From Candidatus Zixiibacteriota bacterium (GTDB lineage Bacteria > RBG-13-66-14 > B26-G2 > WVWN01): a stretch of 64,000 nt of DNA. Under the pieces are notes generated by a model that ran no database searches, was not told the origin of the DNA, and saw nothing but the letters and a program-made list of their open reading frames with translations. Position 1 is the first letter of the stretch. Each line of letters begins with the position of its first letter. The stretch covers positions 1,110 through 65,109 of the forward strand of contig JAUWLW010000009.1 in NCBI GenBank assembly GCA_030613505.1. Direction: 5' to 3'. Both the position numbers and the translations under genes were made by a program. Shown piece after piece: positions 1-54,096 of this stretch.

Positions 1-3000
1 GCGACCGGCGACGTAGGCGAGCCGGAGTTGCTAATGCGCCGCGTCCACGTCGCCGCGCCGCCCGAGGCCCACGTTTCGGTCGAAGTCGAGAGGGTGTCGT
101 TCGACGTGCGGACGGGCGTCGACTTGTACCCGCGGCCTCGACTGAAGGTCGAGGAGCGCCACGGCGAGCAGACGTTGAGCGAAGAGTTTGCCTACGACGC
201 GGTGGCGTACCGCGAAGGTACGTACCCCGCCAAGTTCGCCGAGCTCGAGGGCGAAGACGTGATGCGCGGCTATCGGTTGATATCGGTCGCGGTTTACCCC
301 TATCAATACCAACCGGCCGCCGGTACGCTGCGGGTAGTCAAAAGCGTAGTCGTACGGGTATCGTTCCGGGGCGGCGTCCGCCGGCCCAACGCCCGATATC
401 CGGCCCGCCCGGCCGAGGACGGCATCTTCACCCGGGTCGTTCCGGCGGTGGTCCTCAACCACGAGGTCGCGTCGCGGTGGCCTTTCGCCGGCGGCATCGC
501 GCCCGCCCGAGACGGCGACGTTTGGCCTACGGACTTCGCCGGCAAGGCGGCGGTGAAGGTAGTAGTGGAGGAGGAGGCGTTGTACCGCCTTAGTTACGCG
601 GAGTTGAAGGCCACCGGCCTCCCGGTGGACACCCTCAACCCCGCCAACTTGCGCTTTTTCGCCGGCCCCGCCAAGCGCCTGCCCCGCGACTTCAACTACG
701 AGCCGCCGGGCTTGACCGAGCTCCCGATTTACGTAGCCGGTCAGGGCGACGGCCGCTTCGACGCGAGCGACTACGTCGAGTTCTACGGCCACGGCTGCGA
801 CTTCTTCGAGCATATCGAGCCCGGTGAAAACGGCGCGCAGAAATTCTCCAAGAATCGGTTCACGAGGTACAACTTCTATTGGCTCGTGGCGGACGCCGTG
901 CCCGGAAAGAGGATGACGGCGGCGGCCGTCGCGCCTACGGGCGGGACTAAACCCGCCTACTTCTGGGACCGATTACGCCTGGAGGAAGATAATCAAGACG
1001 TAGCCGAAACCGAGAACGCAATACTGGAAGAGGACGAGTACTGGTATTGGCGCATATTCAACGCGCCCACCGGGCCGTCGCGGATAAAATCGTTCACCTT
1101 TAAGGACCCGGTCAACGGCGCGGGCGCGCCGAAGACGTATTTACAGATAATGGTCCGCGAGCAAGAGGGCTTGGAGGGCAACGGCCCCCACCACACCATC
1201 GTTTATCTGAATTACCCGGATAAAAACCATATAATTTTCGAAGAAGATAATTACAAAGCGGACGTCGAGACGTACTTCCACCGCCGGTTCCCGAGCAGGC
1301 ACCTCATCGACGGCCAAAATCGCCTTTACTTCGAGGAGGTGGGGGACCGGGCGCCCATCGACTTCATAATGCTCGACCACTTCGAGTTCGAGTACCCGCG
1401 GCACTTCCGCGCATACCAGGACTACCTCCATTTCTCCAATCCGCCCGGTACGAACGGCAAGGTCCTCTTCGAAATCCCCGGCTTTACTACCGATGACCTG
1501 GTCGTCTACGACGTTACGCGGGGCCGGCGGCTGGCGGCTTTCGAAGTTAAGGCCGCGGGTAACGAGTACACGCTTCGGTTCACGGACGACATACCTTCGG
1601 GTCAGCGCTGGTACGTGGCGGCGTCGCCGTCGGCGGCCCGCAAGCCGCGGGACGTTTATCTGGACGCCGGCTCGAAGCTGCGCGACGTGGACGAGAACGT
1701 CGACTTGGTCGTCGTCGTTTACGACGGTTACTACGACAACGTAATGCCGCTGGTTAACCTGCGCCGGGCCGCGGGCCTCAACGTCCTCGTCGCCCGCGTT
1801 ACGGACGTCTACGACGAATACTCGTGGGGGTTGTACGACCCGGGCGCGACGCGGTTATTGGTGAAAGACGTCTACCGTAAGGCGATCTACCGCCCGGGCG
1901 GCGAGCTCCCCGACCACCTCTTCCTGGTGGGCGATGCCTATTTAGACCATCGGGATAACTACGGGAACTTTGCCAACCGCGAGCTTTGGCGCGAGTTCGG
2001 CCGCAACCAGGTCCCCACGTACTACATCAACACGTCGTCCAGCGGCCGTACCTCCTCGGATAACTATTTCGTCGCGATGAGCGCCAGCCTGGCCCCGGAC
2101 CTGGCGGTAGGCCGCTTTCCCGCCCCGTTCGACGATAACATCGACGCCATCGTGGAGAAGGTCGTGGCGTACGAGCGCCACGCGGCCAACGGCCCCTGGA
2201 ATAACCGCGTAATCCTCGTCGCCGACAACGACGACAAGACCGAGTCGGGCGGCGGCCGGGGCGACTTTACCCGGGATAACGAAAACCTGGAGGAGGAGTT
2301 TACCCCCTTGGGTTTCGAGGTCCGCAAGGAATATATCGAATGGCTGACACGCCGTTTCCCCGTCGACAGAATAGAAGAAACGGGTTTCGACTTCATGTCC
2401 CGGGGCGAGCGCCAATATTGGGTCGGTAGGATTATGAAGCCCGATTTCTTGAAGGGCTTCAACGGCATAATCATGCACTACGCCGGCCACGGCGGCCCCC
2501 AAGTTTGGTCCCACGAGAACCTCTTCCTCCACCATAAGGACCTGCCGCCGGTAGACGACGTCGACGCCCTCGAGAACGCCCCGTACTTGCCCGTCATCAT
2601 ACAATGTTCTTGTTCGACCGCCTATTTCGACCAGTGGTACGGGACGGAAAACGAGCCGCTGGATTTCGGGCAATGTATCAGCGAGTACATCTTGCAAGTG
2701 CCGCGTAAGGGCGGGGTCGCGGCGTTGGGCTCGACCCGCCTCGGGTACGAGGGCGCACAACACGCTTTCCTCCAAAGTTTCTACGGCTACGTCTTCCCCA
2801 AGAAGAAGGCGCGGTGGAGCGGCGTAACGGTGGGCGAAGCCCATCTGGTGGGTAAAATAAAAGTCGGCGAAACCATCCGCGACATGTTCGTACTGCTCGG
2901 CGACCCGTCGATGACGCTCGCCACGCCGCGGCCGGGGTTGAAGTTAACCCCCAATAAGGCTAAGGTGAAGCGGGGCGAGAAGGTCAAGGTCGCCGGTACG

Positions 3001-4137
3001 GTGCCCAACAACTTCAACGGCAAGGCCGTGGTGCAGCTTTTCGACCGGCCTTGGTACTTCTACAGCGGCGACATGGACAGGGACATCTACCGGGACCGGT
3101 TGCTCGCTACGACGGATGTCGAGGTCTTGAACGGCCGCTTCGACGCGACGTTGGTCGTGCCGACGATGCCCGTCAATCCTATCCCGAGCTTCGACGCCGG
3201 GCCTCCCGTTGCCGCGGGAGAAGCGGCTCCGGCGGGGGCGGCGTCCGCGGCGGCCGATAACGCGGCCGCGGCCGCGGAGGGGGCCGGACCGCCGGCGCCG
3301 GCCGCGGCGTCGCCGTACCGCGTCCCGTCGCTCGCGCCCGTCGCCGAGGACGGCGTAGTTCACGTTAAAGCCGTGGCTTACGGGACCGGCTTCCGCCGGG
3401 TATACGTCTGCAACGAGGACGTAACGGTCAACGTGGCAGGGGAGGTTAGCTCCGGCGACAACGTCGGCCCGGATATCGACGTCTACTTGAACGATTATTC
3501 CTTCCGCAGCGGCGACCCCACCGACCCGACCCCCACGCTTCTGGTCGACGTGCGCGACGAGAGCGGCGTCCTCGTCGCGCGCAACCTCGAGGCCATAGAT
3601 AAGGATAAGGGCGAGAGAACCTTCGTGCCCTTCTCCGCCCGCATAACTAAACCCGACCCCAAATCGACGCCGACCGTTCTGGACCTCACTTATTATTACA
3701 AGGCCAAGGTGGGCGATTACCGCGGCGGCTCGGTGGAGAAAGAGATTTCGCTGGCAGACGGCGTGAGTACAATCGCCGTGACGGCGTACGACAGCTTGGG
3801 CAATAAGAGCCAGCGGAAGGTCCAATGCGTCGTGAGCGGGGCGTTGGGCATGGCGGAAGTGATGAATTGCCCGAACCCGTTCAAGGACGATACCTACTTC
3901 ACGTTCGTAGCCTCGAGCGACGTCGACAGCCTGGTCATTAAGATCTACACCGCCACCGGGCGCTTGATCCAGAAATTGGAAACCGGCGGCCTGCCGGCGG
4001 GCTACAACCAGATCCACTGGGACGGCCGCGACGGCGACGGCGACCGCATAGCCAACGGCGTTTACTTCTATAAAATCATCGCCCGGGCCGGCGGTGAGAA
4101 GATCGTCGCCCGGCAGAAGATGTTTAAACTGAGGTAG
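1..4137 (+). CDS. Peptidase C25 (gingipain-like) family cysteine protease, 5'-partial. It has an Ala/Pro-rich linker and a C-terminal FlgD-Ig/T9SS-CTD-like sorting domain.
   Basis: The reading frame is open from nt 1, so the gene starts upstream of the window. No signal peptide is visible. C25 catalytic dyad context is present: 'HYAGHGGPQVW' (His) and 'IIQCSCSTAYFD' (Cys). The N-terminus resembles a gingipain propeptide. A low-complexity linker 'AAGEAAPAGAASAAADNAAAAAEGAGPPAPAAASP' is present. The last ~90 aa ('CPNPFKDDTYFTF...ANGVYFYKIIARAGGEKIVARQKMFKLR') match the C-terminal domain shared with the proteases at 8642, 50503 and 52348. Confidence 0.7.
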   Translation, partial: ATGDVGEPELLMRRVHVAAPPEAHVSVEVERVSFDVRTGVDLYPRPRLKVEERHGEQTLSEEFAYDAVAYREGTYPAKFAELEGEDVMRGYRLISVAVYPYQYQPAAGTLRVVKSVVVRVSFRGGVRRPNARYPARPAEDGIFTRVVPAVVLNHEVASRWPFAGGIAPARDGDVWPTDFAGKAAVKVVVEEEALYRLSYAELKATGLPVDTLNPANLRFFAGPAKRLPRDFNYEPPGLTELPIYVAGQGDGRFDASDYVEFYGHGCDFFEHIEPGENGAQKFSKNRFTRYNFYWLVADAVPGKRMTAAAVAPTGGTKPAYFWDRLRLEEDNQDVAETENAILEEDEYWYWRIFNAPTGPSRIKSFTFKDPVNGAGAPKTYLQIMVREQEGLEGNGPHHTIVYLNYPDKNHIIFEEDNYKADVETYFHRRFPSRHLIDGQNRLYFEEVGDRAPIDFIMLDHFEFEYPRHFRAYQDYLHFSNPPGTNGKVLFEIPGFTTDDLVVYDVTRGRRLAAFEVKAAGNEYTLRFTDDIPSGQRWYVAASPSAARKPRDVYLDAGSKLRDVDENVDLVVVVYDGYYDNVMPLVNLRRAAGLNVLVARVTDVYDEYSWGLYDPGATRLLVKDVYRKAIYRPGGELPDHLFLVGDAYLDHRDNYGNFANRELWREFGRNQVPTYYINTSSSGRTSSDNYFVAMSASLAPDLAVGRFPAPFDDNIDAIVEKVVAYERHAANGPWNNRVILVADNDDKTESGGGRGDFTRDNENLEEEFTPLGFEVRKEYIEWLTRRFPVDRIEETGFDFMSRGERQYWVGRIMKPDFLKGFNGIIMHYAGHGGPQVWSHENLFLHHKDLPPVDDVDALENAPYLPVIIQCSCSTAYFDQWYGTENEPLDFGQCISEYILQVPRKGGVAALGSTRLGYEGAQHAFLQSFYGYVFPKKKARWSGVTVGEAHLVGKIKVGETIRDMFVLLGDPSMTLATPRPGLKLTPNKAKVKRGEKVKVAGTVPNNFNGKAVVQLFDRPWYFYSGDMDRDIYRDRLLATTDVEVLNGRFDATLVVPTMPVNPIPSFDAGPPVAAGEAAPAGAASAAADNAAAAAEGAGPPAPAAASPYRVPSLAPVAEDGVVHVKAVAYGTGFRRVYVCNEDVTVNVAGEVSSGDNVGPDIDVYLNDYSFRSGDPTDPTPTLLVDVRDESGVLVARNLEAIDKDKGERTFVPFSARITKPDPKSTPTVLDLTYYYKAKVGDYRGGSVEKEISLADGVSTIAVTAYDSLGNKSQRKVQCVVSGALGMAEVMNCPNPFKDDTYFTFVASSDVDSLVIKIYTATGRLIQKLETGGLPAGYNQIHWDGRDGDGDRIANGVYFYKIIARAGGEKIVARQKMFKLR

Positions 4138-4150
4138 CGTGGTAAACGAT

Positions 4151-5128
4151 ATGAAACCGTTATTTATTGCCGCGGTCCTTCTCGCGATAGCGGCGGCGAG
4201 CGCAAATGCCGACGAAAATAAATACGCCGCCGATTGGATGACGTACGGCGCCGGCGCCCGGGCGCTGGGGATGGGCGGCGCGTTCGTCGCCGTGGCCGAC
4301 GACGCTACGGCCGCCTATTGGAACCCAGCCGGGATGCCCTCGGTGGAGCGGGCCGCCTTCTCCGCCATGCACTCCTACACCTTCAACGGCCTCGCCGCGT
4401 ACGACAGCATTTACGGCGCGTATAACCTCGGCAAGTACGGCGCCGTGGGCGGCGGCCTGTTGATGTGCGCCGTCGACGATATTCCCATTACGGGCTGGAA
4501 CGACCCCGAATCGCCGAACAGGAGGCCCGTGTTGAAAGGGTACGCGGATTCGGGGGATTACGCCGTATACGGCTCGTACGGCCGCGAGTTGTTGCCCAAG
4601 TTTAACGTCGGCGCGAGCGGCATCTTTATAATGGGCCGGCACCTGGAAGACTTCGAAGAAGACGCCAACTCCTCCGGCCAGGCGCTCGACGTCGCGGCCA
4701 AGGCGGGCCCGTTCGGGCCGTTCACCGTCGGCGTGAACGTCCAGAATATATATTCCAATCTGAAATGGGATACCGGTAAGAAAGAGACGATTCCCACCAA
4801 CGTCAAGTTGGGCGGAGCGTACCGGCGCGCGGTCTCGAAGTGGGACAGCGAGTTCACGCTGGCCGCGGACTGCAACGTCAAGTTCGCGGGCTACGACTTC
4901 GCCTCTCAGCTCGCCGCGGGCGACGCGAGCTTCGACTTCTGCGGCGGCGGCGAGTGGTGGTACCGGAGGACGGTAGCGGTGCGATTGGGGAGCGAGCGTT
5001 CCGCCTTGACCGGCGGCGTGGGGCTCGCGGTGAGGGCGCTGGGCGCTTCCTTCGGCATCGACTACGCTTTTCTCTCTGACACCGGGCTCGAGTCCAGCCA
5101 CCGGGCGTCGGCCTCGGCCGCCTTCTAG
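4151..5128 (+). CDS. Outer-membrane beta-barrel protein, PorV/FadL-like (candidate shuttle for CTD cargo).
   Basis: Signal peptide 'MKPLFIAAVLLAIAAASANA'. Signature motif 'GAGARALGMGGAFVAVADDATAAYWNPAGM', which I recall from PorV(LptO)/FadL-like barrels. Alternating amphipathic strands. Ends in a C-terminal Phe (beta-signal). It lies 2 nt downstream of the C25 gene stop. A GTG at 4139 is an alternative start. Confidence 0.5.
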   Translation: MKPLFIAAVLLAIAAASANADENKYAADWMTYGAGARALGMGGAFVAVADDATAAYWNPAGMPSVERAAFSAMHSYTFNGLAAYDSIYGAYNLGKYGAVGGGLLMCAVDDIPITGWNDPESPNRRPVLKGYADSGDYAVYGSYGRELLPKFNVGASGIFIMGRHLEDFEEDANSSGQALDVAAKAGPFGPFTVGVNVQNIYSNLKWDTGKKETIPTNVKLGGAYRRAVSKWDSEFTLAADCNVKFAGYDFASQLAAGDASFDFCGGGEWWYRRTVAVRLGSERSALTGGVGLAVRALGASFGIDYAFLSDTGLESSHRASASAAF

Positions 5129-5176
5129 CGCAGCGCCAGAGGACCCGCGGCCCGCAACCTACAGGGGTTGATTAAA

Positions 5177-5380
5177 ATGTTCGGTTCGATCGGCATTCAG
5201 GAAGTATTACTTATACTGCTTATCGCGCTGCTTTTATTCGGCGCCAAACGCCTGCCGGAGATAGGCCGCGGCCTGGGCAAGGGCATTCGCGAATTTAAGA
5301 AAGCCTCGCGGGATATTAGCGGTAAAATTACCGAAGAAGCGGAAGACAAGGAGCCGGGGAAGAACGAATCAACGCCGTAA
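5177..5380 (+). CDS. tatA: Twin-arginine translocase subunit TatA/E.
   Basis: '[43 protein letters not shown]' is the canonical TatA TM helix plus amphipathic helix. A GGGG RBS-like run lies ~9 nt upstream of the ATG at 5177. A TTG at 5168 is an alternative start. Confidence 0.85.
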
Positions 5381-5437
5381 ACGGGCGGCGCGGGAAATCC
5401 GGCGGGCGCCCCTTCCTCCAATTTAATTCCGTAACTT

Positions 5438-6220
5438 ATGGGCGATAAATTGCTCGCGCTCGACGTGGGCAACACGTCTATCGCCGGCGGATACTTCGTC
5501 GGCGGTCGACTCGAGTTTCACGTTGACTTCTCAAGCGACGCGTCGCGGACCGCGGACGAATACGGGGCGCAGCTGCGGCACCTGGTGGAGCTCAACGGCG
5601 GCGCCGCGGCCGCCTTGCCGTCCGTAATGTGCTCGGTGGTGCCGCCGCTCACGTCGTGCCTGGCGGCGGCGCTCGAGAAATATTTCGGCGTAGCGCCGGT
5701 GGTAGTGGGCGACGACTACGACGCGTTGGGCATCGAGGTGCGCTATGAGAACGTGGCGGAGGTGGGCCCGGATCGCGTCGTCAACGCCCTGGCGACGCGC
5801 GAGTTGTACGGCGCGCCGGCGGTGGCGGTGGATTTCGGCACGGCCACTAATTTCGACGTCGTGGCCGCCGACGGCGCGTACGTCGGGGGCGTGATAGCGC
5901 CCGGCGTCGTCGTCTCGGCCAAGAGCCTTTTCGCGGAGGCGGCCCGCCTGGGCGCGGTGGGCCTTACGATGCCGCCGCGGGTGGTGGGGCGAAACACGGA
6001 CGAGGCTTTGCGCGCGGGCATCATCCTGGGCGCGGCGGGCGCCGCCGACGGGATAGTCGAAGCCATACGGGAGGAGAGGGGGGAGCGCGGCGCGTTGGTC
6101 GCGACCGGCGGCCTGGCGAACGTCGTAGCGCCGGTTATGAAGACGGCGCCGCGCGTCGACGCGGACCTCACGTTGAAAGGGCTCGCGCTGTCGTTCGAGC
6201 GGTTGGGCGGCGCGACGTAA
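5438..6220 (+). CDS. coaX: Type III pantothenate kinase.
   Basis: 'LLALDVGNTSI', 'GPDRVVNALA' and 'AVDFGTATNFDV' are CoaX/Bvg accessory factor family motifs. Length 260 aa. Confidence 0.8.
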   Translation: MGDKLLALDVGNTSIAGGYFVGGRLEFHVDFSSDASRTADEYGAQLRHLVELNGGAAAALPSVMCSVVPPLTSCLAAALEKYFGVAPVVVGDDYDALGIEVRYENVAEVGPDRVVNALATRELYGAPAVAVDFGTATNFDVVAADGAYVGGVIAPGVVVSAKSLFAEAARLGAVGLTMPPRVVGRNTDEALRAGIILGAAGAADGIVEAIREERGERGALVATGGLANVVAPVMKTAPRVDADLTLKGLALSFERLGGAT

Positions 6221-6230
6221 AACCACGACT

Positions 6231-7013
6231 ATGAGACGTTGCGGGATTTTGTGGCTTGCGGCGGCCGTTTTTATTTTCACGGCCGCGTGCCGCCGCGGCG
6301 AAGAGGGTGCCGAGAGCGCGGCGCCGGGAGAAGGGTACACGCCGCCGCCGGTGGAGTACGTCGTCGGAAAGATGGACGTGGACGACGACGCCGCGGAACC
6401 GTCGGTGCGTATGAACATAGCCGTCGACCCGTCGACGCCGGCCAAGGATATCGAGCGACTGTTGAACTACTTCGACAAGGAGCGGTACGACGAGTACGAT
6501 ATCGTTTGGGTTAACGTCTACTTCGACGTTGCCAAAGCGCGTTCGCCCGAGGCGGATACGCTGGCGCTGGTGGCGACGCTGCGCGTAAACCGCCCCGGGT
6601 TCCGTGAGCTCAAGCTCTCGGAAGATTTACTGGACCCGGAAGGAACGTTGGGCGGCCGACCCGAAGTCACTACTCAGACCGAGGAAACCCTTTACCTCGG
6701 CCGCCGCGGTCGGATGTTCGACTCCGGCAAGCAAGCGCAAACCCTCGTCGACATGATGGAAGATAAACCCGGCCACGCCCTCTACAGAGTCGTGTGGCAG
6801 AGCCCCGGTAATGCCCAATTGACGTACAGCGTTGAACAGGAGATGTTGGTGCGCGTCCGGACCGGCGTCTCGCGTGAGACGTGGGCCGAGATGTCGTACG
6901 AGGGCTTGGAACGCGCCGCGAGGGGCGCCGGCTTCGGCGGCAAGCGGCGCCACGGCGCCAACTACGTTTACGTTCGGGAAACGGCGGACGAGGCCGAGGG
7001 CGGAGGTGAGTGA
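6231..7013 (+). CDS. Hypothetical lipoprotein.
   Basis: Signal peptide with lipobox 'FIFTAAC'. I recognise no other motif. Confidence 0.4.
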   Translation: MRRCGILWLAAAVFIFTAACRRGEEGAESAAPGEGYTPPPVEYVVGKMDVDDDAAEPSVRMNIAVDPSTPAKDIERLLNYFDKERYDEYDIVWVNVYFDVAKARSPEADTLALVATLRVNRPGFRELKLSEDLLDPEGTLGGRPEVTTQTEETLYLGRRGRMFDSGKQAQTLVDMMEDKPGHALYRVVWQSPGNAQLTYSVEQEMLVRVRTGVSRETWAEMSYEGLERAARGAGFGGKRRHGANYVYVRETADEAEGGGE

Positions 7014-7022
7014 CGCCCTAGC

Positions 7023-8021
7023 TTGCTCGCGCGCGACGTACGCGTCGGCATCACGACTACCCTTCCTATAGAGGTCCTCTGGGCGGCGGGCTATAGGCCG
7101 GTGGACCTCAATAATTTATTCATAGGCCGCGGCGACGCCGAACGCGCGGTGCAAGAGGCCGAAAGCGTAGGTTTCCCGCGTAGCACCTGCGCTTGGATAA
7201 AGGGGATCTACGCCACCGTTAAGGAGGAGGGTTTCGGCCGCGTCGTTGTCGTGACCGGGGGCGACTGTTCCAACGCCGCCGCGCTGGGCGAGGTCTTGGC
7301 GGACGAGGGCGTCGACGTCGTCGCGTTCGCGTTTCCTTCACGGCCGGACCGGGCCGCGACAACCCTCGCCGTAGAGGCGCTCGCCGGCCGATTCGAAACG
7401 ACCGTAAGCGCCGCTGAAGGAGTTTTCGCGCGCCTCTCGCGAAGCCGGGCGCTCCTGGCGGAGGTGGACGAGCTGACGTGGCGCGAGGGCATCGTGTCCG
7501 GCCGCGAGAACTTCGATTGGCTGCTGAAGGCTTGCGATTTCGGCGTCGGGGTCGAAGAATTTGAAGAAGAAGCGACGCGGTTCTTGGCGGAAGTGCGCGG
7601 CCGGCGCGGGCAAACGAAGCGCGTCCGCCTGGGCGTAGCCGGCGTTCCCCCCATCAACGACGACCTCTTTGAGTTTCTGGAGAGTTTGGGGGCCGCGGTC
7701 GTATTCAACGAGCTGCCGCGGCAATTCGCGCTCTTGGCCGGCGGCGACGACCTGGCCGACGCGTACACTCGTTATACCTACCCTTACGGCGCCGGGACCC
7801 GCATAGCCGATATATTGGAAGAGGTAGAACGCCGCGGCGTGCAGGGCTTGGTGCATTACGTCCAATCCTTCTGTTACCGCGGGATCCAGGATATTCTCGT
7901 ACGCCGCGCCGTGCCGGTCCCGGTCTTGACGCTGGAGGGCGAGCGGCCCGGGCCGCTGTCGGCGCAGCAGCGTCTGCGGCTCGAAACGTTCGTCGAGATG
8001 TTGGCCGGGGGTACTCGTTAG
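7023..8021 (+). CDS. 2-hydroxyacyl-CoA dehydratase / benzoyl-CoA reductase subunit family protein (HgdB/BcrC-like).
   Basis: Pattern 'CAWIKGIY...VVVTGGDCSN' and overall alpha/beta layout resemble HGD-D family subunits. It is shorter (332 aa) than typical subunits and no activase gene is nearby. Assignment by recall only. Confidence 0.4.
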   Translation: MLARDVRVGITTTLPIEVLWAAGYRPVDLNNLFIGRGDAERAVQEAESVGFPRSTCAWIKGIYATVKEEGFGRVVVVTGGDCSNAAALGEVLADEGVDVVAFAFPSRPDRAATTLAVEALAGRFETTVSAAEGVFARLSRSRALLAEVDELTWREGIVSGRENFDWLLKACDFGVGVEEFEEEATRFLAEVRGRRGQTKRVRLGVAGVPPINDDLFEFLESLGAAVVFNELPRQFALLAGGDDLADAYTRYTYPYGAGTRIADILEEVERRGVQGLVHYVQSFCYRGIQDILVRRAVPVPVLTLEGERPGPLSAQQRLRLETFVEMLAGGTR

Positions 8022-8092
8022 AGCGGCGGTGCGACGTCGTTAGCTTGAGCCGCGCCGCAATTATGAAAATGAGGGGGTTTCGACATTTTAAT

Positions 8093-8121
8093 TTGACAAC
8101 GGCGGCGATTTAAGTTATAAT
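8093..8121 (+). promoter_or_regulatory. Consensus sigma70 promoter: TTGACA, 17-nt spacer, TATAAT.
   Basis: TTGACA at 8093-8098, a 17-nt spacer (8099-8115) and TATAAT at 8116-8121. An AGGAGG RBS at 8144-8149 and ATG at 8155 follow. A perfect consensus promoter is conspicuous in a 65% GC genome. Confidence 0.7.
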
Positions 8122-8140
8122 GATATTAATAATCATTATC
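8122..8140 (+). promoter_or_regulatory. Fur-box-like operator.
   Basis: 'GATATTAATAATCATTATC' matches 17 of 19 positions of the Fur consensus GATAATGATAATCATTATC. It lies immediately downstream of the -10 hexamer and contains the near-palindrome TAATAATCATTATCA. Confidence 0.6.
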
Positions 8141-8154
8141 AATAGGAGGTTTCG

Positions 8155-8619
8155 ATGCGGAAAGCGTTTGTTGGGCTAGCGGCTTTACTCGCGACGTGGG
8201 TCGCGGCTGCGTCGGCGGCGATGCTGCCAATTACGACCGCTGAGCTGGCGGACCACGCGACGTTGGTCGTCGCGGGGACGGTGGAAGACGTGACGTCGTA
8301 CGCGCCCGACGCCGCCGGGATAATTTTCTCCGAGGCGAAGGTTAGGGTCGGCGATACGGCGGTAGGGTCGAACGCGGACGAGTACGTTACGGTGCGGTAC
8401 ATGGGCGGCGAATACGGCGGCCTGGCGCTCGTAATTATGGAAGAGGCGACGTTCGAGGTCGGCGAAGAGGTAGTTCTGTTCCTCGCCCCCGTAGACGGCG
8501 GCGCGTACAAGTGCCCGGACGGCGCTCAGGGTAAAATGTCGGTGGTTGACGGAACCGTTCTACCGGCCGGAAAAACGTTAAACCAATTCTTGGCCGAGGT
8601 AGCGGCCGCGGGCCGTTAG
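8155..8619 (+). CDS. Small secreted hypothetical protein (154 aa), first gene behind the Fur-box promoter.
   Basis: Signal peptide 'MRKAFVGLAALLATWVAAASAA'. Strong RBS. I recognise no domain. Confidence 0.55.
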   Translation: MRKAFVGLAALLATWVAAASAAMLPITTAELADHATLVVAGTVEDVTSYAPDAAGIIFSEAKVRVGDTAVGSNADEYVTVRYMGGEYGGLALVIMEEATFEVGEEVVLFLAPVDGGAYKCPDGAQGKMSVVDGTVLPAGKTLNQFLAEVAAAGR

Positions 8620-8641
8620 ACTTGACCGGAAGGGTGCGCAA

Positions 8642-9853
8642 ATGAAGAAGGTATTTTTAATCGCTTTGATTATAGCCATAGCGGCGCCGGCGTTCGGCTT
8701 TAAGGTCTTCTATTACGGCGGCAAGATAGTAAAGCACGGTGAGGAGCAGATCCCCTGGACGATGAGGTTCAACAACCTCGGCACGCCGGACTGCGCGAAA
8801 GAGTTCGCCGCGCTGGCTTCGTCGCTTAATACCTGGTCCAACGTTACCAAGCAGTGGTACCGCAACAAACGCGGCGTTAATACGAGCACTATCAATTACG
8901 GCTACGACGGCGTTAACCTCTGCGTTTGGTATGAGCCCGGATACTCGGGTCAGGGAGGCTGGCCGTGGGCGGCGGGCGCCATCGCCGTGAACATCTTCTG
9001 GATGACGGACGCCGGTACGTTTTATAAGGTAGTCGAAAACGACGTCTGCTTCAACGGCCATAACTTCACCTGGTCCGACAAGGGCGAGGTGTACCGGATG
9101 GATGTCCAGAACATAGCGACCCACGAATTCGGTCACAACCTCGTCCTGGCCGATTTGTACGACGCCGCCTCGCGGGATTTTACGATGTACGGTTACGCGT
9201 CTACCGGCGAGACGAAGAAGCGTACGCTGCATCAGGACGATATAAACGGCATCCGATTCTTATATCCCAACGACGAAATTACGCTGGAGTCGTTCACCGC
9301 GACGGCGCGCGAGGGCCGGGTGCTGGTGGCGTGGAAGGTCTCGCGCGAGGAGAACCACGCCGGCTACAACCTCTACCGCTTGGAGGACGTGGGGGGCGGC
9401 GCCGACTACGTGAAATTGAACGAGGCGCTGATCGTAGGGCGCTCGCCGTACGAGTTTGAAGACGGCGGCGTGAAAGCGGGCACGGCGTACAAGTACCTGC
9501 TGGAGTCCGTGGACCTGAGCGGCGGCAAGGAGCGCTTCGGGCCGGCGCGGGTGGAGGTCCCGACGGCGCAGAAGCGGGTATTCGCGCTGGCGCAGAGCTA
9601 CCCCAACCCGGCGCGGACGGCGGCGACGATAAAGTTCGCGCTGCCGGAGGCGACGACGGCCGAGCTGGAGGTATACGATTTGAGCGGCCGGCGGGTGGCT
9701 ACGCTGTACTCCGGTGCGGCGGAGGCCGGGGAACGCGAGGTGGTGTGGAACCTGGCGGGCGACGACGGCTCCGCGGTGGCGCCCGGGGTGTACATATACC
9801 GGCTGCGGACGCCGGGCGACGTCGCCGCGCGCCGGCTGGTCGTGGCCCGGTAA
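8642..9853 (+). CDS. Secreted metzincin-like zinc metalloprotease with a C-terminal FlgD-Ig/T9SS-CTD-like domain.
   Basis: Signal peptide 'MKKVFLIALIIAIAAPAFG'. Variant metzincin motif 'HEFGHNLVLAD' (HExxHxxxxxD, lacking the canonical Gly) with a downstream Met-turn candidate 'FTMYGY'. The C-terminal ~90 aa ('YPNPARTAATIKFALPEATTAELEVYDLSGRRVATLY...GVYIYRLRT') and the preceding ~100 aa domain are homologous to the C-termini of the M14 paralogs. Confidence 0.65.
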   Translation: MKKVFLIALIIAIAAPAFGFKVFYYGGKIVKHGEEQIPWTMRFNNLGTPDCAKEFAALASSLNTWSNVTKQWYRNKRGVNTSTINYGYDGVNLCVWYEPGYSGQGGWPWAAGAIAVNIFWMTDAGTFYKVVENDVCFNGHNFTWSDKGEVYRMDVQNIATHEFGHNLVLADLYDAASRDFTMYGYASTGETKKRTLHQDDINGIRFLYPNDEITLESFTATAREGRVLVAWKVSREENHAGYNLYRLEDVGGGADYVKLNEALIVGRSPYEFEDGGVKAGTAYKYLLESVDLSGGKERFGPARVEVPTAQKRVFALAQSYPNPARTAATIKFALPEATTAELEVYDLSGRRVATLYSGAAEAGEREVVWNLAGDDGSAVAPGVYIYRLRTPGDVAARRLVVAR

Positions 9854-10032
9854 ACGGTGGCTTGGTGTGTACGCGTCGGCATGGGCGGGCTCCGGCCCGC
9901 CCTTTTTCCGACTTGGGGCGTTAAACGGCTTTTTCGGCGGCACCGTCTAAAGTCGGCGCGGCGTTTGGCATTGCAAACGCGTGGCGGCGGTGTTAAAATT
10001 ATCGTGGAAATTGTAATGTTTTCCGGAAGGAA

Positions 10033-10491
10033 TTGGCCCCGATGAGGCTGTTGGTTGGGATTTTAACGGCTTTGGCTTTGGCCGGCGCGGCATGGCCCGG
10101 CGGCAAAGAAGCTTTTATCGATTACTACGCCACCGCGTCCTCCCTGATCAGTTCGCTTAACAACGCGGCCGCGGACGTGGAACGGTTGAATCTACAAAGC
10201 GGCGACTTCTCAGACGACGTCGCCGGCGACATCAAGTCCCGGCTCGTAAAAGCCCGCGAGGGTTTCAATTCCATTTTGACGTACGACGACCACACGAACG
10301 AATTGAACGAAGGGTACGTGCTCTACATAGATAAGATGTTGTTGGCGTTAATGGTAGCCAAAGAATATCGCGAAAAAGGAGAGCCTGAAAAGCGCGACCG
10401 CCTGGTCAAAATTACGGCCGAGGCCGGCGGGCTGCGGACCGAACTAAACGATAAGGTCCAGCGCGATAAAAAGAAATGGGGGCTCGACTAG
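10033..10491 (+). CDS. Hypothetical secreted protein.
   Basis: Signal peptide 'MRLLVGILTALALAGAAWPG'. The mature part is charged and helical. No recognised domain. Confidence 0.4.
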   Translation: MAPMRLLVGILTALALAGAAWPGGKEAFIDYYATASSLISSLNNAAADVERLNLQSGDFSDDVAGDIKSRLVKAREGFNSILTYDDHTNELNEGYVLYIDKMLLALMVAKEYREKGEPEKRDRLVKITAEAGGLRTELNDKVQRDKKKWGLD

Positions 10492-10512
10492 CGCCGGGGG
10501 TATTTAAAAGAT

Positions 10513-11238
10513 ATGAGGACAGTAAACGTCATAAAAAGAGTTACGGCGGCCGCCGTTCTGATATCAGTTATGATGCTGGGCTTGGCTTGCTACGAACGTT
10601 TCATCGTCATTCAGGTGAAGAAGCCGCCCGAAATCGACCCGTCGGTGTACAAGCGGGTCGGCGTGCTGCCGTTCGAGGGCGAGGAGGACGAGGGCCTTTT
10701 GGCCTCGAAGGCGGTGCGCGAGAAGATGGCGGCTGAGGAAAATTTCCTCGTCGAACCCGCCGAGACGGTCGAGGCCGCCCTCGACCGGGTCGATTTCTTC
10801 GATCCGTCGAGTAGGGACCAGGCCGTGGCTTTAGGCGCCGAGTTGGGGGTGGACGCGGTGCTCATCGGCGAAGTCGAATTTATACAGCGGACCTATAGCC
10901 CGGAGGGCGACGTCCGCAACGAGCTCTACACCGCGGATCGCCGGGCGATAGCTCCGTTCGAGCTCGGGACGTCGTACGCCACGCGGTACATGGACGTGAA
11001 TTTAAGGTATACCTTGCGGCTGACCGTCAAAGCGCTCGACGTCAGGACGGGGCGTTTGATGCGCCGGCGGGAATTCGAAGCGACGACGATGAATACCTAT
11101 AAACAACGCGAAGTTACCGAGGCCTCTTTTAAGGAAAAAGAGATCTTCGATGAGCTGCTCGAAGAAGTTGTGGATGACTTCGTATACACGCTCCAACCCC
11201 ACGACGTGGCACAGACGCGTGAAGTTGCGAGGTTTTAA
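10513..11238 (+). CDS. Lipoprotein with a TolB-N/LpoB/CsgG-like alpha/beta domain. Hypothetical.
   Basis: Lipobox 'LGLAC'. 'VGVLPFEGEEDEG...LGAELGVDAVLIGEV' resembles small periplasmic lipoprotein domains that dock on envelope machines. Its 3' end overlaps the start of the next gene by ~20 nt. Confidence 0.4.
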   Translation: MRTVNVIKRVTAAAVLISVMMLGLACYERFIVIQVKKPPEIDPSVYKRVGVLPFEGEEDEGLLASKAVREKMAAEENFLVEPAETVEAALDRVDFFDPSSRDQAVALGAELGVDAVLIGEVEFIQRTYSPEGDVRNELYTADRRAIAPFELGTSYATRYMDVNLRYTLRLTVKALDVRTGRLMRRREFEATTMNTYKQREVTEASFKEKEIFDELLEEVVDDFVYTLQPHDVAQTREVARF

Positions 11239-14543: not shown

Positions 14544-14629
<86 letters not shown>

Positions 14630-14649
14630 AATTTTTCGCGGGATTCCCG

Positions 14650-14931: not shown

Positions 14932-15020
14932 GGAGAGGTGTCCGAGCGGCTTAAGGAGCACGCCTGGAGAGCGTGTGGGCCCGTTGGGCCTCGTGGGTTC
15001 GAATCCCACCCTCTCCGCCA
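14932..15020 (+). tRNA. tRNA-Ser (anticodon GGA), with encoded CCA.
   Basis: Acceptor stem GGAGAGG/CCTCTCC, identical to the first tRNA. Anticodon stem-loop 'cacgc CTGGAGA gcgtg'. Long variable arm. T-arm 'gtggg ttcgaat cccac'. 3'-GCCA. Confidence 0.8.
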
Positions 15021-30866: not shown

Positions 30867-30882
30867 CCTGAAAGGTCTGACG

Positions 30883-50502: not shown

Positions 50503-52254
50503 TTAACGAGTGATTACCAATCGCCGGTTTAGCGTTCCGTTGGCCGTTCGGAGGCGGTAGACGTAAACGCCGGGCGCCAGCGGCCGGCCCGCCTCGTCGG
50601 CTACGTTCCAGGCGATCTCTTTGGCGCCGGCGGCGGCGTGGCCTTCGTAGAGGGTCCGTATTTTGCGGCCGGCGTAGTCGTAGACCTCGAGCGCGACGGC
50701 CCCGGGTTGGGCCAGCTCGAACTTGATGGTCGTGGCGTCTCGGGCCGGGTTAGGCCGGTTCTGATAAAGGGCCGCGCCTTTCGGCAGCGCCTTGCCCGAC
50801 GCCCGCCCCTTGACCGGGCCGAAGGTCGACGTTTCCCCCTTCAAGTCCACGCCCTCGAGCAGGTACTCGTAATCGCGGCCCGCTTCGACGCCCCGGTCGA
50901 CGTAGTTATATGGCGAGCGGCCGGCGACGAGGTTCTCGTTGAGCTTCGCGTAATCGACCGTCGCCGGTCCTTCCGCGGTCGGCCGGCGGTAGAGGTTGAA
51001 GCCCGCCACGTCGCGTTCGTTCGCGACTTCCCAATGAAGCGTTACGCCGCCGGCGGCGGCCTCGGCCCGGAACGACGTTACGTTTACGGGTAACTCCGAA
51101 AAGCCGAGCTTAAGGAGTTTGAGAAGCACCGGATATTGTTCGGCGCAGGTGATGGGGATTTGGTAGGCCGGCGGTTGTTGGGAGGTATCGATCTCGAACG
51201 TGAAGCCCCAGCACTTGTCGTGGCCTTTACCGTCGTATTCCCAATCGCACGCCGTCCCGCTCCCCAGGTAGCGCAACGTTTCCCAGAAATTGCCGTGCCG
51301 CCACCCCGATAAAGTTTCTATGAGATATAACGAGACGTTTTTGAAGTACGTATAATCGGGCTCGGGGGGATGGCCGTAATCGTGGTTCCAGGGATACATG
51401 CAATATCGGCCGGACGAGTGATAATTTAGGGCGTAATTAAACTGGTGTTCGTTGCTATTGACGAGGTCGCGGATAGCTTGGGTTTCCGGTTCCGAAAAGG
51501 CGTAGGGGCCGCAATAGGTAGAGGCGTTCGGGTTGTGACTGCACCCCGGTACTTTACCCCACTCGTAGTCGTAATTACGGTTGAGGTCGACGCCGTAGCT
51601 CCCGCCGCCGTTGTCTCGGCGGTTTTTTCGCCACCTGTTGTAAACCTTGAAGACGTGGTTGTGGCCGTCAGGGTTAAGCATGGGGATTATCCAGGTCTCG
51701 ACGTTATCGACTATCAGCTTGACGTCGGGATCGGTCGGGTATTTCTCGCATAATTTCTTGGCGAGGTAAAGCGGCACCTCGACCGTCATGATCTCGTTGG
51801 CGTGGTGGTTGCCGTCTATGAGGATATCCTTTTCGGCTGCCTCGTGCGTCGCGACGTTGTCTGATATCTTCAGCGCCCAGATTTCGCGTTTCTCCCACGT
51901 ATCGCCGACGTCGTAGAGCCTGCAGATATTCGGGTAGGTGCTGGCGAGCCCTTGTAATATGGAAACCATCTCGTCGTACTCGGTATACTCGGAGGGCGGC
52001 GCGTCGGCGGTATCGATTTCGTCCAGAACGTCGTAGGAGATACTTTTAAGGCCAAGGACGGCGAGGTCGTCGGCCGACGCGTATAGGTCAAAGTGACCGG
52101 CGGCGTCCGCCCCGGCGACGTCGAAATCGTAGCGTCGCAGGTCGGCCATAAGGCGAGCCGGGTCGGCGTACGCGCGCGTTAAGTAAACGGTATCCGCGGC
52201 GGCTCCCGCGGCCAACGCAGCGACCACGGTTACAAATAATACTACGCTTTTCAC
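50503..52254 (-). CDS. Secreted M14 zinc carboxypeptidase with a C-terminal FlgD-Ig/T9SS-CTD-like domain (paralog 1).
   Basis: Signal peptide. 'GNHHANEIMT' HxxE zinc site. 'MLNPDGHNHV'. The C-terminal '...YQNRPNPARDATTIKFELAQPGAVALEVYDYAGRKIRTLY...GVYVYRLRTANG' domain is present. Confidence 0.8.
   Translation of the reverse strand: MKSVVLFVTVVAALAAGAAADTVYLTRAYADPARLMADLRRYDFDVAGADAAGHFDLYASADDLAVLGLKSISYDVLDEIDTADAPPSEYTEYDEMVSILQGLASTYPNICRLYDVGDTWEKREIWALKISDNVATHEAAEKDILIDGNHHANEIMTVEVPLYLAKKLCEKYPTDPDVKLIVDNVETWIIPMLNPDGHNHVFKVYNRWRKNRRDNGGGSYGVDLNRNYDYEWGKVPGCSHNPNASTYCGPYAFSEPETQAIRDLVNSNEHQFNYALNYHSSGRYCMYPWNHDYGHPPEPDYTYFKNVSLYLIETLSGWRHGNFWETLRYLGSGTACDWEYDGKGHDKCWGFTFEIDTSQQPPAYQIPITCAEQYPVLLKLLKLGFSELPVNVTSFRAEAAAGGVTLHWEVANERDVAGFNLYRRPTAEGPATVDYAKLNENLVAGRSPYNYVDRGVEAGRDYEYLLEGVDLKGETSTFGPVKGRASGKALPKGAALYQNRPNPARDATTIKFELAQPGAVALEVYDYAGRKIRTLYEGHAAAGAKEIAWNVADEAGRPLAPGVYVYRLRTANGTLNRRLVITR
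50556..51204. repeat. ~650-bp segment ~97% identical to 52401..53049 (3' third of the tandem M14 genes).
   Basis: Direct comparison of the two stretches shows only scattered single-nucleotide differences at a constant offset of 1845 nt. Additional short identical blocks occur near 51780-51900 and 53620-53740. Confidence 0.8.
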
Positions 52255-52280
52255 GCCGTCACCTCCTCGGGGTAACCGTT

Positions 52281-52347: not shown

Positions 52348-54096
52348 TTAACGGGTTACGACCAAGCGCCGACTGAGCGTTTCGGCGCTCGTCCGCAGCC
52401 GGTAGACGTAAACGCCGGGCGCCAGCGGCCGGCCCGCCTCGTCGGCTACGTTCCAGGCGACCTCTGTGGCGCCGGCGTCGGCGTGGCCTTCAAAAAGCGG
52501 CCGTATTTTGCGGCCGGCGTAGTCGTAGACCTCGAGCGCGACGGCCCCGGGTTGGGCCAGCTCGAACTTGATGGTCGTGGCGTCTCGAGCCGGGTTAGGC
52601 CGGTTCTGATAAAGGGCCGCGCCTTTCGGCAGCGCCTTGCCCGACGCCCGTCCCTTGACCGGGCCGAAGGTCGACGTGCCCCCCTTCAAGTCCACGCCCT
52701 CGAGCAGGTATTCGTAGTCGCGGCCCGCCTCGGCGCCGCGGTCGACGTAGTTATACGGCGAGCGGCCGGCGATGAGGTTTTTGTTGAGCTTCGCGTAATC
52801 GACCGGCGCCGGCCCTTCCGCGGTCGGCCGGCGGTAGAGGTTGAAGCCCGCCACGTCGCGTTCGTTGGCGACTTCCCAGTGAAGCGCTACGCCGCCGGCG
52901 GCGGCCTCGGCCCGGAACGACGTTACGTTTACGGGTAACTCCGAAAAGCCGAGCTTAAGGAGTTTGAGGAGCACCGGATATTGTTCGGCGCAGGTGATGG
53001 GGATTTGGTAGGCCGGCGGTTGTTGGGAGGTATCGATCTCGAACGTGAAACCCCAATCTTTGGGGTGGCCTTTACCGTCGTATTCCCAGTCTACGGCGTT
53101 GCCGGAGGCCAAGTAGCGAAGGATTTCCCAGTCGTTGCCGTGCCGCCAGCCTGGCAAGGTCTCGAGCAGGTACGTCGCGACGTTCTTGTAATACGTGTAA
53201 TGGGGCTCCGGCGGGTGGCCGTAGGTATAAGCCCACGGGTAGAGCATGGCCCGGCCGGAGGAGTGGTAGTTTAACGTATACGCGAATTGGTGGTTAACGT
53301 CGTTGATGAGGTCCCGGATCGCCTGGTTCTCCGGTTCGGAAAAAGGGGAGGGGCCGCAGTAAGTCCTATCATTGGGGTTATGGCTCGCGCCGGATTCGCC
53401 CCAGTGATAGTCGTAGTTGCGGTTGAGGTCGACGCCGTAGATGCCGCCGCCGTTGTCGCGGCGGTTCTTACGCCACCTGTTATCCTCCGTGAAAACCCAG
53501 TTGTGGCCGTCCGGGTTGAGCATGGGGATTATCCATGTCTCGACGTTATCGACTATCAGCTTCACGCCGGGGTCGGTCGCGTATTTCTCGCACAAGTTCT
53601 TGGCGAGGTAAAGCGGCACCTCGACCGTCATGATCTCGTTGGCGTGGTGGCAACCGTTTATAAGGATGTCTTTCTCCGCCGTCTCGTGCGTCGCGACGTT
53701 GTCTGATATCTTCAGCGCCCAGATTTCACGCTTCTCCCAGGTGTCGCCGACGTCGTAAAGTTTACAAATATTGGGGTAGGTATTCGCGAACCCTTGCAAT
53801 ATCGGTACCATCTCATGGTACTCAGTGTACTCCGGAGGAGGTGCGTCGGAGGTATCGATTTCGTCCAGAACGTCGTAGGAGATACCTTTAAGGCCAAGGA
53901 CGGCGAGGTCGTCGGCCGACGCGTATAGGTCGAAGTGGTCGCCGGGTACGGCGCCGTCTACGTCGAAGTCGTACTCCGCCAGATCGGTCATAAGGCGGGA
54001 CGGGTCCGCGTAGGCGCGCGTCCAATAAAGCGTGTCCGCGGACGCGCCGGCGGCCAGGGCGGTTCCTAAGATTGTGACAACTACTATAGCTCTCAT
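52348..54096 (-). CDS. Secreted M14 zinc carboxypeptidase with a C-terminal FlgD-Ig/T9SS-CTD-like domain (paralog 2).
   Basis: Same motifs as paralog 1 ('NGCHHANEIMT', 'MLNPDGHNWV'). ~75% aa identity over the catalytic domain. Near-identical C-terminal third. Confidence 0.8.
   Translation of the reverse strand: MRAIVVVTILGTALAAGASADTLYWTRAYADPSRLMTDLAEYDFDVDGAVPGDHFDLYASADDLAVLGLKGISYDVLDEIDTSDAPPPEYTEYHEMVPILQGFANTYPNICKLYDVGDTWEKREIWALKISDNVATHETAEKDILINGCHHANEIMTVEVPLYLAKNLCEKYATDPGVKLIVDNVETWIIPMLNPDGHNWVFTEDNRWRKNRRDNGGGIYGVDLNRNYDYHWGESGASHNPNDRTYCGPSPFSEPENQAIRDLINDVNHQFAYTLNYHSSGRAMLYPWAYTYGHPPEPHYTYYKNVATYLLETLPGWRHGNDWEILRYLASGNAVDWEYDGKGHPKDWGFTFEIDTSQQPPAYQIPITCAEQYPVLLKLLKLGFSELPVNVTSFRAEAAAGGVALHWEVANERDVAGFNLYRRPTAEGPAPVDYAKLNKNLIAGRSPYNYVDRGAEAGRDYEYLLEGVDLKGGTSTFGPVKGRASGKALPKGAALYQNRPNPARDATTIKFELAQPGAVALEVYDYAGRKIRPLFEGHADAGATEVAWNVADEAGRPLAPGVYVYRLRTSAETLSRRLVVTR
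52401..53049. repeat. Second copy of the ~650-bp near-identical segment (see 50556..51204).
   Basis: As above. Confidence 0.8.

Follow-up and report, generated by a model that had tools for sequence, protein, structure and literature searches.

[quoted passage not shown]

Introduction

Does a C25 peptidase gene that directly precedes an outer-membrane barrel gene in a high-GC genome encode an exported cargo next to its shuttle, or a part of the export machinery itself? [quoted passage not shown] PorV binds the cargo CTD, docks at SprA and anchors PorU (PMC10202324, PMC5445135). The T9SS also exports PorU, which retains its CTD (PMC11285876, PMC10202324). In Porphyromonas gingivalis (PG0026/PG0027) and Flavobacterium johnsoniae (Fjoh_1556/Fjoh_1555) porU is followed by porV (PMC5445135). 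Reviews have already extended the T9SS to other FCB phyla (PMC11285876, PMC11205867). Searches for literature on the T9SS in Coatesbacteria, Poribacteria or similar phyla yielded nothing relevant among the papers listed.

In this study, we analysed a window of 64 kb, the whole stretch of DNA available to us, whose first two genes had been described in an earlier note as a gingipain-like cargo peptidase and its PorV-type shuttle. From sequence comparisons and structure models we consider it highly probable that positions 1..5128 hold porU and then porV, which encode the part of a T9SS that processes and attaches cargo.

Results

The locus and its lineage

The features of the locus are as follows.

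1..4137, plus strand: porU, predicted T9SS sortase and C-terminal signal peptidase, MEROPS family C25 (NF033707; sequence and fold matches to 6za2)
7..372, plus strand: gingipain-type N-terminal prodomain, Propeptide_C25 (PF08126, 45.5 bits), with its start upstream of the window
1708..2919, plus strand: Peptidase_C25 catalytic domain (PF01364, 4e-65)
3850..4134, plus strand: T9SS type-A C-terminal sorting domain of PorU (TIGR04183, 29.3 bits)
4138..4150, plus strand: porU-porV spacer of 13 nt, no terminator-like site
4151..5128, plus strand: porV, 325 aa, a 14-stranded outer-membrane beta-barrel of the PorV/PorQ family, predicted cargo shuttle and PorU anchor (NF033709; AF2/Foldseek)

Since both reading frames (1..4137 and 4151..5128) have a GC3 of 0.82-0.84 and either hundreds of homologues or high scores with family models, neither is a product of chance. 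The porU frame (frame 1) runs from nt 1 to a TAG stop at 4135-4137; its start codon is absent from the window, as its first 107 codons lie beyond the 5' end, and the full protein has 1485 aa. The upstream sequence, whose recovery the earlier note had advised, was supplied by the near-identical contigs L001-L003, and the full-length protein begins with the signal peptide MRKVLLAVF(T/I)FGAAAWAAAP. ERZ25748748 NODE_47 and SRR12623517_68767 are near-identical to the contig of the window.

The first possible start of porV is GTG 4139, 1 nt past the porU stop. ATG 4151 is conserved in all homologues and chosen by gene callers, and an exact-protein look-up gave a match from this start and none from GTG 4139. 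The gap of 2 nt proposed previously is therefore to be corrected to a spacer of 13 nt. No terminator-like site was found between the two genes, which are probably co-transcribed.

In all loci of the Coatesbacteria lineage, over a range of PorV identities of 92% to 43%, porU stands directly upstream of porV, and the same order occurs in about ten loci of Poribacteria; among the individual loci, L005-L009, L085 and L088 keep the pair. GT4 glycosyltransferase genes lie immediately upstream of porU throughout the lineage, so that a GT4-porU-porV synteny is conserved in Candidatus Coatesbacteria MAGs. The order porU-porV-tatA-coaX is common to the window and its closest Ca. Coatesbacteria relative. 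Ca. Coatesbacteria (RBG-13-66-14) MAGs are the nearest labelled relatives of the window (PorV identity 74%), which bears out the suspicion that the host lies outside Bacteroidota. We take it to be a high-GC, Coatesbacteria-like (RBG-13-66-14) uncultured anaerobe. In NCBI taxonomy Coatesbacteria stand outside the FCB group, and likewise Poribacteria.

Proteins with a sorting domain and the T9SS core genes

Besides PorU, three secreted peptidases in the same 64 kb carry the same lineage-specific CTD.

8642..9853, plus strand: predicted T9SS cargo, secreted matrixin-like (M10) metallopeptidase with type-A CTD (Peptidase_M10, 30 bits; Por_Secre_tail/TIGR04183, 43 bits)
50503..52254, minus strand: predicted T9SS cargo, M14 zinc carboxypeptidase with signal peptide and type-A CTD (Peptidase_M14, 6.8e-71; TIGR04183, 34.5 bits)
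52348..54096, minus strand: predicted T9SS cargo, tandem paralogue M14 carboxypeptidase with type-A CTD (Peptidase_M14, 8.3e-72; TIGR04183, 31.1 bits)

These proteins, one M10 and two M14 peptidases, combine a Sec signal with a type-A CTD (TIGR04183, 31-43 bits), and together with PorU (29.3 bits against a cut-off of 23) all four pass TIGR04183. PNP[FA], GVY.Y and a C-terminal R are common to the four CTDs. That of PorU (FlgD_ig/CTD in Pfam, window aa 1297-1362) contains PNPF and GVYFYKI, ends in ...KLR and can be aligned with the CTDs of the three predicted cargo proteins. The exact-protein look-up of one of the M14 peptidases (M14b) gave no match, probably since the called start differs.

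Pfam or NCBIfam searches of all plausible candidates among the approximately 53 genes of the window revealed no sprA/sov, porK/L/M/N, porP, porT, porW, porZ or porQ. Likewise, 85 related loci contained no ORF of SprA size and no FGE-sulfatase motif, a weak test as far as the motif is concerned. The FGE-sulfatase motif is typical of GldK.

The absence of such core genes from these loci raises the possibility that PorU and PorV sort CTD proteins in Coatesbacteria and Poribacteria without canonical SprA/GldKLMN machinery, as a module that receives its cargo from another outer-membrane translocon in a non-Bacteroidota lineage. In its favour, porU and porV are the only T9SS core genes seen in the 64 kb and in related loci amounting to about 200 kb, both gene products diverge from the equivalog models of Bacteroidota, and Coatesbacteria are outside the FCB group. 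However, T9SS genes are normally scattered (PMC5445135), so their absence from one window is to be expected and says little; in Bacteroidota as a whole, T9SS core genes are found together with CTD proteins (PMC11285876), and the CTDs of the window bear classical type-A motifs. We therefore regard this alternative as improbable. If it were true, a T9SS-type attachment system would be coupled to a different translocon in phyla outside the FCB group as defined by NCBI taxonomy.

The C25 protein is very probably PorU by sequence and predicted fold

The earlier note was right to recognise a C25 peptidase here, and also its His/Cys dyad and C-terminal sorting domain. Peptidase_C25 covers window aa 570-973, with the catalytic His830 in HYAGHGG (nt 2488-2490) and the catalytic Cys871 in IIQCSCS (nt 2611-2613). 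The aligned counterparts of these segments in P. gingivalis PorU (6za2) are NYAGHGG and ITATCDF, and both catalytic residues are invariant in an alignment of 28 sequences.

The question is whether this protein is a gingipain-like secreted protease, a T9SS cargo encoded beside its PorV shuttle, or the T9SS sortase PorU. A gingipain-type prodomain speaks for the former. Propeptide_C25 occupies window aa 3-124; the prodomain matches that of Kgp in a sequence search of the PDB (5mun, 1.3e-10) and the folds of the RgpB and Kgp prodomains (4ief_A/C, 5mun; TMt ~0.6) in Foldseek. The type-A CTD would suit a cargo as well, and the PorU model NF033707 scores slightly under its curated cut-off of 420, with 416.8 bits for the part in the window and 417.6 bits, 2.4 below, for the full-length protein. 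The match spans model positions 6-834 and the CTD. With the same model, the syntenic Coatesbacteria orthologue next to porV (L008, CP070755.1) reaches 443.4 bits (model positions 7-1092) and a Poribacteria orthologue next to porV 408 bits.

Against a gingipain stands the likeness to PorU beyond the catalytic core. In a phmmer search of the PDB, PorU 6za2 was the best match (9.6e-32), and no gingipain catalytic domain was matched at E <= 0.01. The predicted model (pLDDT 86.3) is most similar in fold to 6za2 (1.6e-36) over 971-981 columns, including non-catalytic domains that gingipains are without, whereas Kgp and RgpB match the catalytic and Ig part over about 520 columns at ~1e-17, 19 orders weaker. 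Gingipain likeness is thus limited to prodomain and catalytic core, with PorU the better match throughout. As in Bacteroidota (PMC5445135), the gene keeps its place upstream of porV, and a prodomain also occurs in unambiguous PorUs such as P0142 (838 bits as PorU), for which reason we rejected it as a novelty. Taken together, a gingipain-like cargo is very unlikely; on these comparisons and models the C25 protein is very probably PorU, and porU, which was to be sought elsewhere in the genome, would be the first gene of the window. What had been read as a cargo-plus-shuttle pair is accordingly the canonical porU-porV attachment-complex pair, even if PorU, exported by the T9SS with a CTD (PMC11285876, PMC10202324), is technically a cargo too.

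An assignment to PorU2/PorV2 was rejected, as the scores are far below the cut-offs of those families: 148 bits for the C25 protein with the PorU2 model, and 100.9 bits against a cut-off of 325 for the barrel with the PorV2 model, which its N-terminal half matches somewhat better than PorV.

The barrel is a divergent member of the PorV/PorQ family

The second protein has the signal peptide MKPLFIAAVLLAIAAASANA, the motif GARALGMGGAFVAVADDATAAYWNPAGM pointed out in the earlier note and a C-terminal Phe (...SASAAF). It passes the PorV/PorQ family model NF033709 (130.6 bits against a cut-off of 90, residues 30-326) and marginally the Pfam PorV family PF19572 (28 against 27). With the PorV equivalog NF033710 it obtains 59.3 bits, far below the cut-off of 250, and with the PorQ model 34.9 bits; as a PorV it thus scores only slightly better than as a PorQ (59 vs 35). 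By sequence, the barrel is a divergent family member, which we call PorV because of its synteny with porU and its fold. Its PDB sequence match is PorV 6h3i_F. The AF2 model (pLDDT 92.7) has 14 long strands, and its top fold matches in Foldseek are PorV 8gl6_F (8e-14, TMq 0.71) and 6h3i_F, with TbuX, FadL and TodX behind (~1e-7, TMq ~0.5). A tblastn search of plasmids with PorV gave no match.

PorV/PorQ-family barrels also exist away from any porU, for example in an Eisenbacteria locus (L087). Since such barrels occur without porU nearby, family membership alone is no proof of T9SS function.

That the barrel is a FadL/TodX-type channel for hydrophobic substrates or a BAM-associated FadL-like barrel, beside the peptidase by chance, can practically be dismissed: FadL, TbuX, TodX and the FadL-like chains of Bacteroidota BAM complexes (9hiv_F, 9n2d_B, 9hjm_F) are fold matches at E 1e-7 to 1e-5, and some homologues bear precomputed Pfam labels of Toluene_X and UPF0164, but PorV structures are clearly best (TMq 0.71 vs 0.5-0.57, E-values 6 orders better), the curated PorV/PorQ model is passed, PF03349 (FadL/Toluene_X) gives no match to the window barrel at E <= 0.01, and the barrel gene stays next to porU in at least two candidate phyla. 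The earlier view of the barrel as PorV-type rather than generic FadL holds.

Discussion

How the pair might work can be outlined by analogy, with all functional steps taken from Bacteroidota systems (PMC10202324, PMC5445135, PMC11285876). Sec would carry the cargo over the inner membrane, and the cargo would fold in the periplasm and then, while PorV binds its CTD, leave via the SprA/Sov translocon. PorV would bring it to surface-exposed PorU, which would stay attached to PorV through its own, uncleaved CTD. PorU would cut off the cargo CTD via a thioester intermediate and then release the cargo or transfer it to a surface glycolipid; the GT4 genes upstream of porU may provide the glycan acceptor. 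The prodomain suggests that the PorU of the window is additionally kept latent as a zymogen. In P. gingivalis, latency of PorU is achieved by dimerisation (PMC10202324), a role that the prodomain may take over here. The system probably exports peptidases for amino-acid fermentation, which suggests peptidase export as a way of feeding in these anaerobes.

The locus is of an ordinary and already annotated kind, in a little-studied lineage. No new mechanism comes to light: the order of the two genes is that of the textbooks, and the barrel is already labelled by public annotation pipelines, with NCBI naming such barrels in Coatesbacteria, Zixibacteria, Eisenbacteria, KSB1 and Latescibacteria MAGs 'PorV/PorQ family protein'. 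The locus does point to T9SS-type sorting outside the usual phylum, as supposed before; the novelty is weaker than supposed, since reviews (PMC11285876, PMC11205867) and the NCBI names precede it. With Coatesbacteria (RBG-13-66-14), a poorly characterised candidate phylum joins the lineages that have a T9SS attachment module and CTD-tagged peptidases, and Poribacteria, met in passing, are a second such phylum. The range thereby becomes slightly wider than the FCB phyla listed in current reviews.

Among known systems, P. gingivalis PorU (PG0026; 6ZA2) is likewise a multidomain C25 peptidase encoded immediately upstream of porV; the motifs that hold its His/Cys dyad are the same, and towards the C-terminus it has Ig-like domains and a type-A CTD. 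Identity is only ~18-25%, and the PorU of the window has approximately 290 extra N-terminal residues, including a Pro/Ala-rich linker and the gingipain-type prodomain (the alignment begins at residue 39 of 6za2 and residue 291 of the window protein), as well as a second Ala/Pro-rich linker ahead of the C-terminal domains. The gingipains RgpB and Kgp (1CVR, 4RBM, 4IEF, 5MUN) have in common with the window protein the catalytic fold, the fold of the N-terminal prodomain and a T9SS CTD. Unlike the window protein and PorU, they are without the large N- and C-terminal beta-sandwich domains; their matches are much weaker, and their genes do not adjoin porV.

The hydrophobic-compound channels FadL, TodX and TbuX resemble the barrel as 14-stranded barrels with an N-terminal plug-like segment, but differ in lower structural scores, the lack of a Toluene_X Pfam match in the window protein and another genomic context. 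Closest are the PorV proteins of F. johnsoniae (Fjoh_1555; 6H3I, 8GL6 chain F) and P. gingivalis (PorV/LptO, PG0027). Like them, the window PorV is a signal-peptide-bearing, 14-stranded FadL-like barrel with the conserved N-terminal G-x-G-A-R-A-x-G-M-G-G...Y-W-N-P-A-G segment, encoded downstream of porU; at 17% identity and with 325 aa compared to ~390-400 aa, it would have shorter loops.

A porU-porV gene pair

Frame 1 of the window (GC content ~62%) runs unbroken from nt 1 until a TAG stop (4135-4137) and has no start codon within the window; the barrel ORF behind it ends at 5128, with GTG 4139 as its earliest possible start. GC3 amounts to 0.82-0.84 in both ORFs, which show strong coding signatures. 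Because ATG 4151 is the barrel start kept in all homologues and used by the gene callers, we set the spacer at 13 nt; from GTG 4139 it would be 1 nt. The genes do adjoin as stated in the earlier note, but not at the 2-nt gap given there. Its description of the sequence features was correct: a C25 peptidase with a sorting domain, and a barrel with a signal peptide, a GARALGMGG...YWNPAGM segment and a C-terminal Phe. We conclude that the locus is a canonical T9SS attachment pair, sortase PorU and shuttle PorV, in a Coatesbacteria-like MAG.

The C25 protein is PorU with an added prodomain

Pfam domains of the C25 protein (window part):
aa 3-124: Propeptide_C25
aa 570-973: Peptidase_C25 (4e-65)
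third domain: FlgD_ig/CTD domain

The C25 protein is PorU plus a gingipain-type prodomain at the N-terminus, since P. gingivalis PorU (6ZA2) is its top match in sequence and fold, gingipains match more weakly and their prodomains are matched separately. The N-terminus absent from the window was taken from near-identical metagenome contigs (L003 mismatches at 4 of 14,589 bases), giving a full-length protein of 1485 aa with a Sec signal peptide. The top NCBIfam match is T9SS sortase PorU (NF033707), with 416.8 bits for the window part and 417.6 bits for the full-length protein, just under the 420-bit cut-off; a syntenic orthologue on Ca. Coatesbacteria chromosome CP070755.1 reaches 443 bits over the entire model. 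On TIGR04183 (T9SS type-A sorting domain) the score of 29.3 bits exceeds the cut-off of 23. In a sequence search of solved structures 6ZA2 ranked first (9.6e-32); the Kgp prodomain (5mun, 1.3e-10) was the sole gingipain match, gingipain catalytic chains giving none. Window residues 1-1093 were modelled with AlphaFold (pLDDT 86.3), and Foldseek with this model returned three tiers: 6ZA2 at 1.6e-36 over ~975 columns, Kgp and RgpB at ~1e-17 over ~520 columns, and the RgpB and Kgp prodomains at ~3e-6 (TMt ~0.6). The motifs 'HYAGHGG' and 'IIQCSCS' align with 'NYAGHGG' and 'ITATCDF' of 6ZA2 and therefore identify the dyad as window His830 and Cys871, both invariant in a 28-sequence alignment. What had been read as gingipain-like cargo is thus the sortase itself, and the pair is one of sortase and shuttle, not of cargo and shuttle.

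The barrel belongs to the PorV/PorQ family

The barrel passes the curated PorV/PorQ family model (130.6 bits, cut-off 90) and falls below the narrower equivalog models (PorV 59 versus 250, PorV2 101 versus 325, PorQ 35); no Toluene_X/FadL Pfam match was found. F. johnsoniae PorV (6h3i_F) is its sole PDB sequence match. The model (pLDDT 92.7) has an N-terminal segment of short helices followed by 14 long strands, and Foldseek ranks PorV of SprA translocon complexes first (8gl6_F, 8e-14, TMq 0.71; then 6h3i_F), with TbuX, FadL and TodX well behind (~1e-7, TMq ~0.5). Family model, PDB sequence match and fold ranking agree on the PorV-type barrel proposed earlier, which is not a generic FadL lacking PorV features.

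Recently solved FadL/PorV-like chains of Bacteroidota BAM complexes also match the fold (9hiv_F, 9n2d_B, 9hjm_F; TMq ~0.5-0.57; ranks 12, 27 and 32), so that PorV-like barrels are common to T9SS and BAM accessory roles. An Eisenbacteria MAG (L087:10001-11044) carries a PorV-family homologue of 38% identity among PilZ, RNase R and a microcompartment cluster, without an adjoining C25 gene, so membership of the PorV/PorQ family extends beyond porU-linked PorV.

Host lineage and gene neighbourhood

The closest labelled PorV homologue (74% identity) lies on the 2.35-Mb Ca. Coatesbacteria chromosome CP070633.1, followed by one Zixibacteria-labelled MAG (67%) and Coatesbacteria MAGs (47% and 43%); remoter homologues occur in Eisenbacteria, KSB1, Latescibacteria, Poribacteria and Gemmatimonadota. 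In several candidate phyla the NCBI pipeline already annotates such barrels as 'PorV/PorQ family protein'. Coatesbacteria correspond to the poorly characterised GTDB phylum RBG-13-66-14 (PMC12343361). Reviews place T9SS in Bacteroidota and possibly other FCB phyla, the genes being absent elsewhere, and do not name Poribacteria as a T9SS-bearing phylum (PMC11285876, PMC11205867); in NCBI taxonomy both Coatesiibacteriota and Poribacteria come under 'Bacteria candidate phyla', outside the FCB group.

The porU-porV pair is present in every Coatesbacteria-lineage locus examined (PorV identities 92% down to 43%) and in about ten Poribacteria loci. In Poribacteria L056, L060, L066, L068, L072, L074, L076, L082 and L084 (~3500-11000 each) a PorU-like protein of ~2,100 aa, prodomain included, is encoded directly 5' of a PorV-family gene; the Poribacteria orthologue scores 408 bits on NF033707.

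Genes flanking the pair:
L001:1-2413, L007:4089-5471, L008:2716-5384, L088:4139-5509: GT4 glycosyltransferase genes 5' of porU, corresponding to just upstream of window nt 1
window 5177-5380, + strand: tatA, 3' of porV
window 5438-6220, + strand: coaX (type III pantothenate kinase), 3' of tatA

One or two GT4 orthologues (34-69% identity) stand directly 5' of porU in every Coatesbacteria-lineage locus; none was seen adjoining the Poribacteria pairs. Speculatively, they might supply a glycan acceptor for PorU-attached cargo. L008 (CP070755.1) has two further GT4 genes 3' of porV. No terminator-like site was found between porU, porV and tatA. Both tatA and coaX follow porV in the window and on CP070633.1 (L085), where the series porU-porV-tatA-coaX is conserved together with the unknown lipoprotein-like gene (254-260 aa) that comes next. 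There the gene 5' of porV (L085:7481-9987) is called at just 834 aa (C25 plus FlgD_ig), behind a short H+-PPase fragment; possible explanations are truncation or a frameshift of porU and an error in the assembly.

Candidate cargo and other genes of the window

8642-9853: M10 peptidase, candidate T9SS cargo (signal peptide, CTD)
50503-54096: two tandem M14 carboxypeptidases, candidate T9SS cargo (signal peptide and CTD each)
7023-8021: 2-hydroxyacyl-CoA dehydratase-family protein
42801-44330: aromatic/histidine ammonia-lyase
49425-50330: proline dehydrogenase
47681-49339: lactate permease
28700-31821 and 60965-62437, + strand: UDP-glucose/GDP-mannose dehydrogenase, two NAD-dependent epimerases, WbaP-type initiating sugar transferase
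11150-14275, + strand: 1042-aa protein with Peptidase_MA_2, PD40/TolB/Tricorn-like beta-propeller repeats and a C-terminal Omp85-family barrel
14544-14629 and 14932-15020, + strand: tRNA-Ser (anticodons CGA, GGA)
56070-56918 and 57146-57775, - strand: two neighbouring double-zinc-ribbon proteins
58040-59092: 351-aa putative outer-membrane barrel without family match, adjoining the double-zinc-ribbon pair

The CTDs of the M10 and both M14 proteins align with that of PorU (PNP[FA], GVY.Y, terminal Arg), and a profile built from these CTDs matched the three peptidase ORFs and porU and no others in the window. The CTD-tagged peptidases and the four metabolic genes are consistent with a host that degrades protein and ferments amino acids. 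The dehydrogenase, epimerase and WbaP-type genes belong to surface-glycan synthesis; their P. gingivalis counterparts UgdA and WbaP are presumably required for the A-LPS by which T9SS cargo is anchored. The 1042-aa protein, in which no POTRA domains were detected, has an unusual architecture also found in L001-L003. The double-zinc-ribbon pair sits in the lowest-GC stretch (~54% versus 62%), and an ORF-like stretch at 14587-14910, overlapping the tRNA-Ser genes, is probably not a gene.

Neither the ~53 window genes nor the related loci examined include sprA/sov, porK/L/M/N, porP, porT, porW, porZ or porQ, as is expected since T9SS genes are dispersed around the genome (PMC5445135). It is unlikely that PorU and PorV work here as a module with a translocon other than the canonical one.

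Comparison with known systems

To the protein identities, dyad, CTDs and synteny found here, export and processing steps may be added, which we infer from Bacteroidota. Cargo would be exported by Sec, fold in the periplasm and exit through SprA/Sov with its CTD bound to PorV; it would then be handed to PorU, tethered to PorV by its own uncleaved CTD, which would take off the cargo CTD by way of a thioester intermediate before the cargo is released or transferred to a glycolipid (PMC10202324, PMC5445135, PMC11285876). The order of porU directly 5' of porV is known from PG0026/PG0027 (75-bp gap) and Fjoh_1556/Fjoh_1555, and PorV serves as the surface anchor of PorU (PMC5445135). The prodomain on PorU is already known: all members of the lineage have PF08126, and P0142, a database protein with such a prodomain, reaches 838 bits as PorU. 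P. gingivalis PorU lacks it, residue 39 of that protein being aligned with residue 291 of the C25 protein. One may speculate that the prodomain confers zymogen-type latency, replacing or adding to the dimer latency of P. gingivalis PorU.
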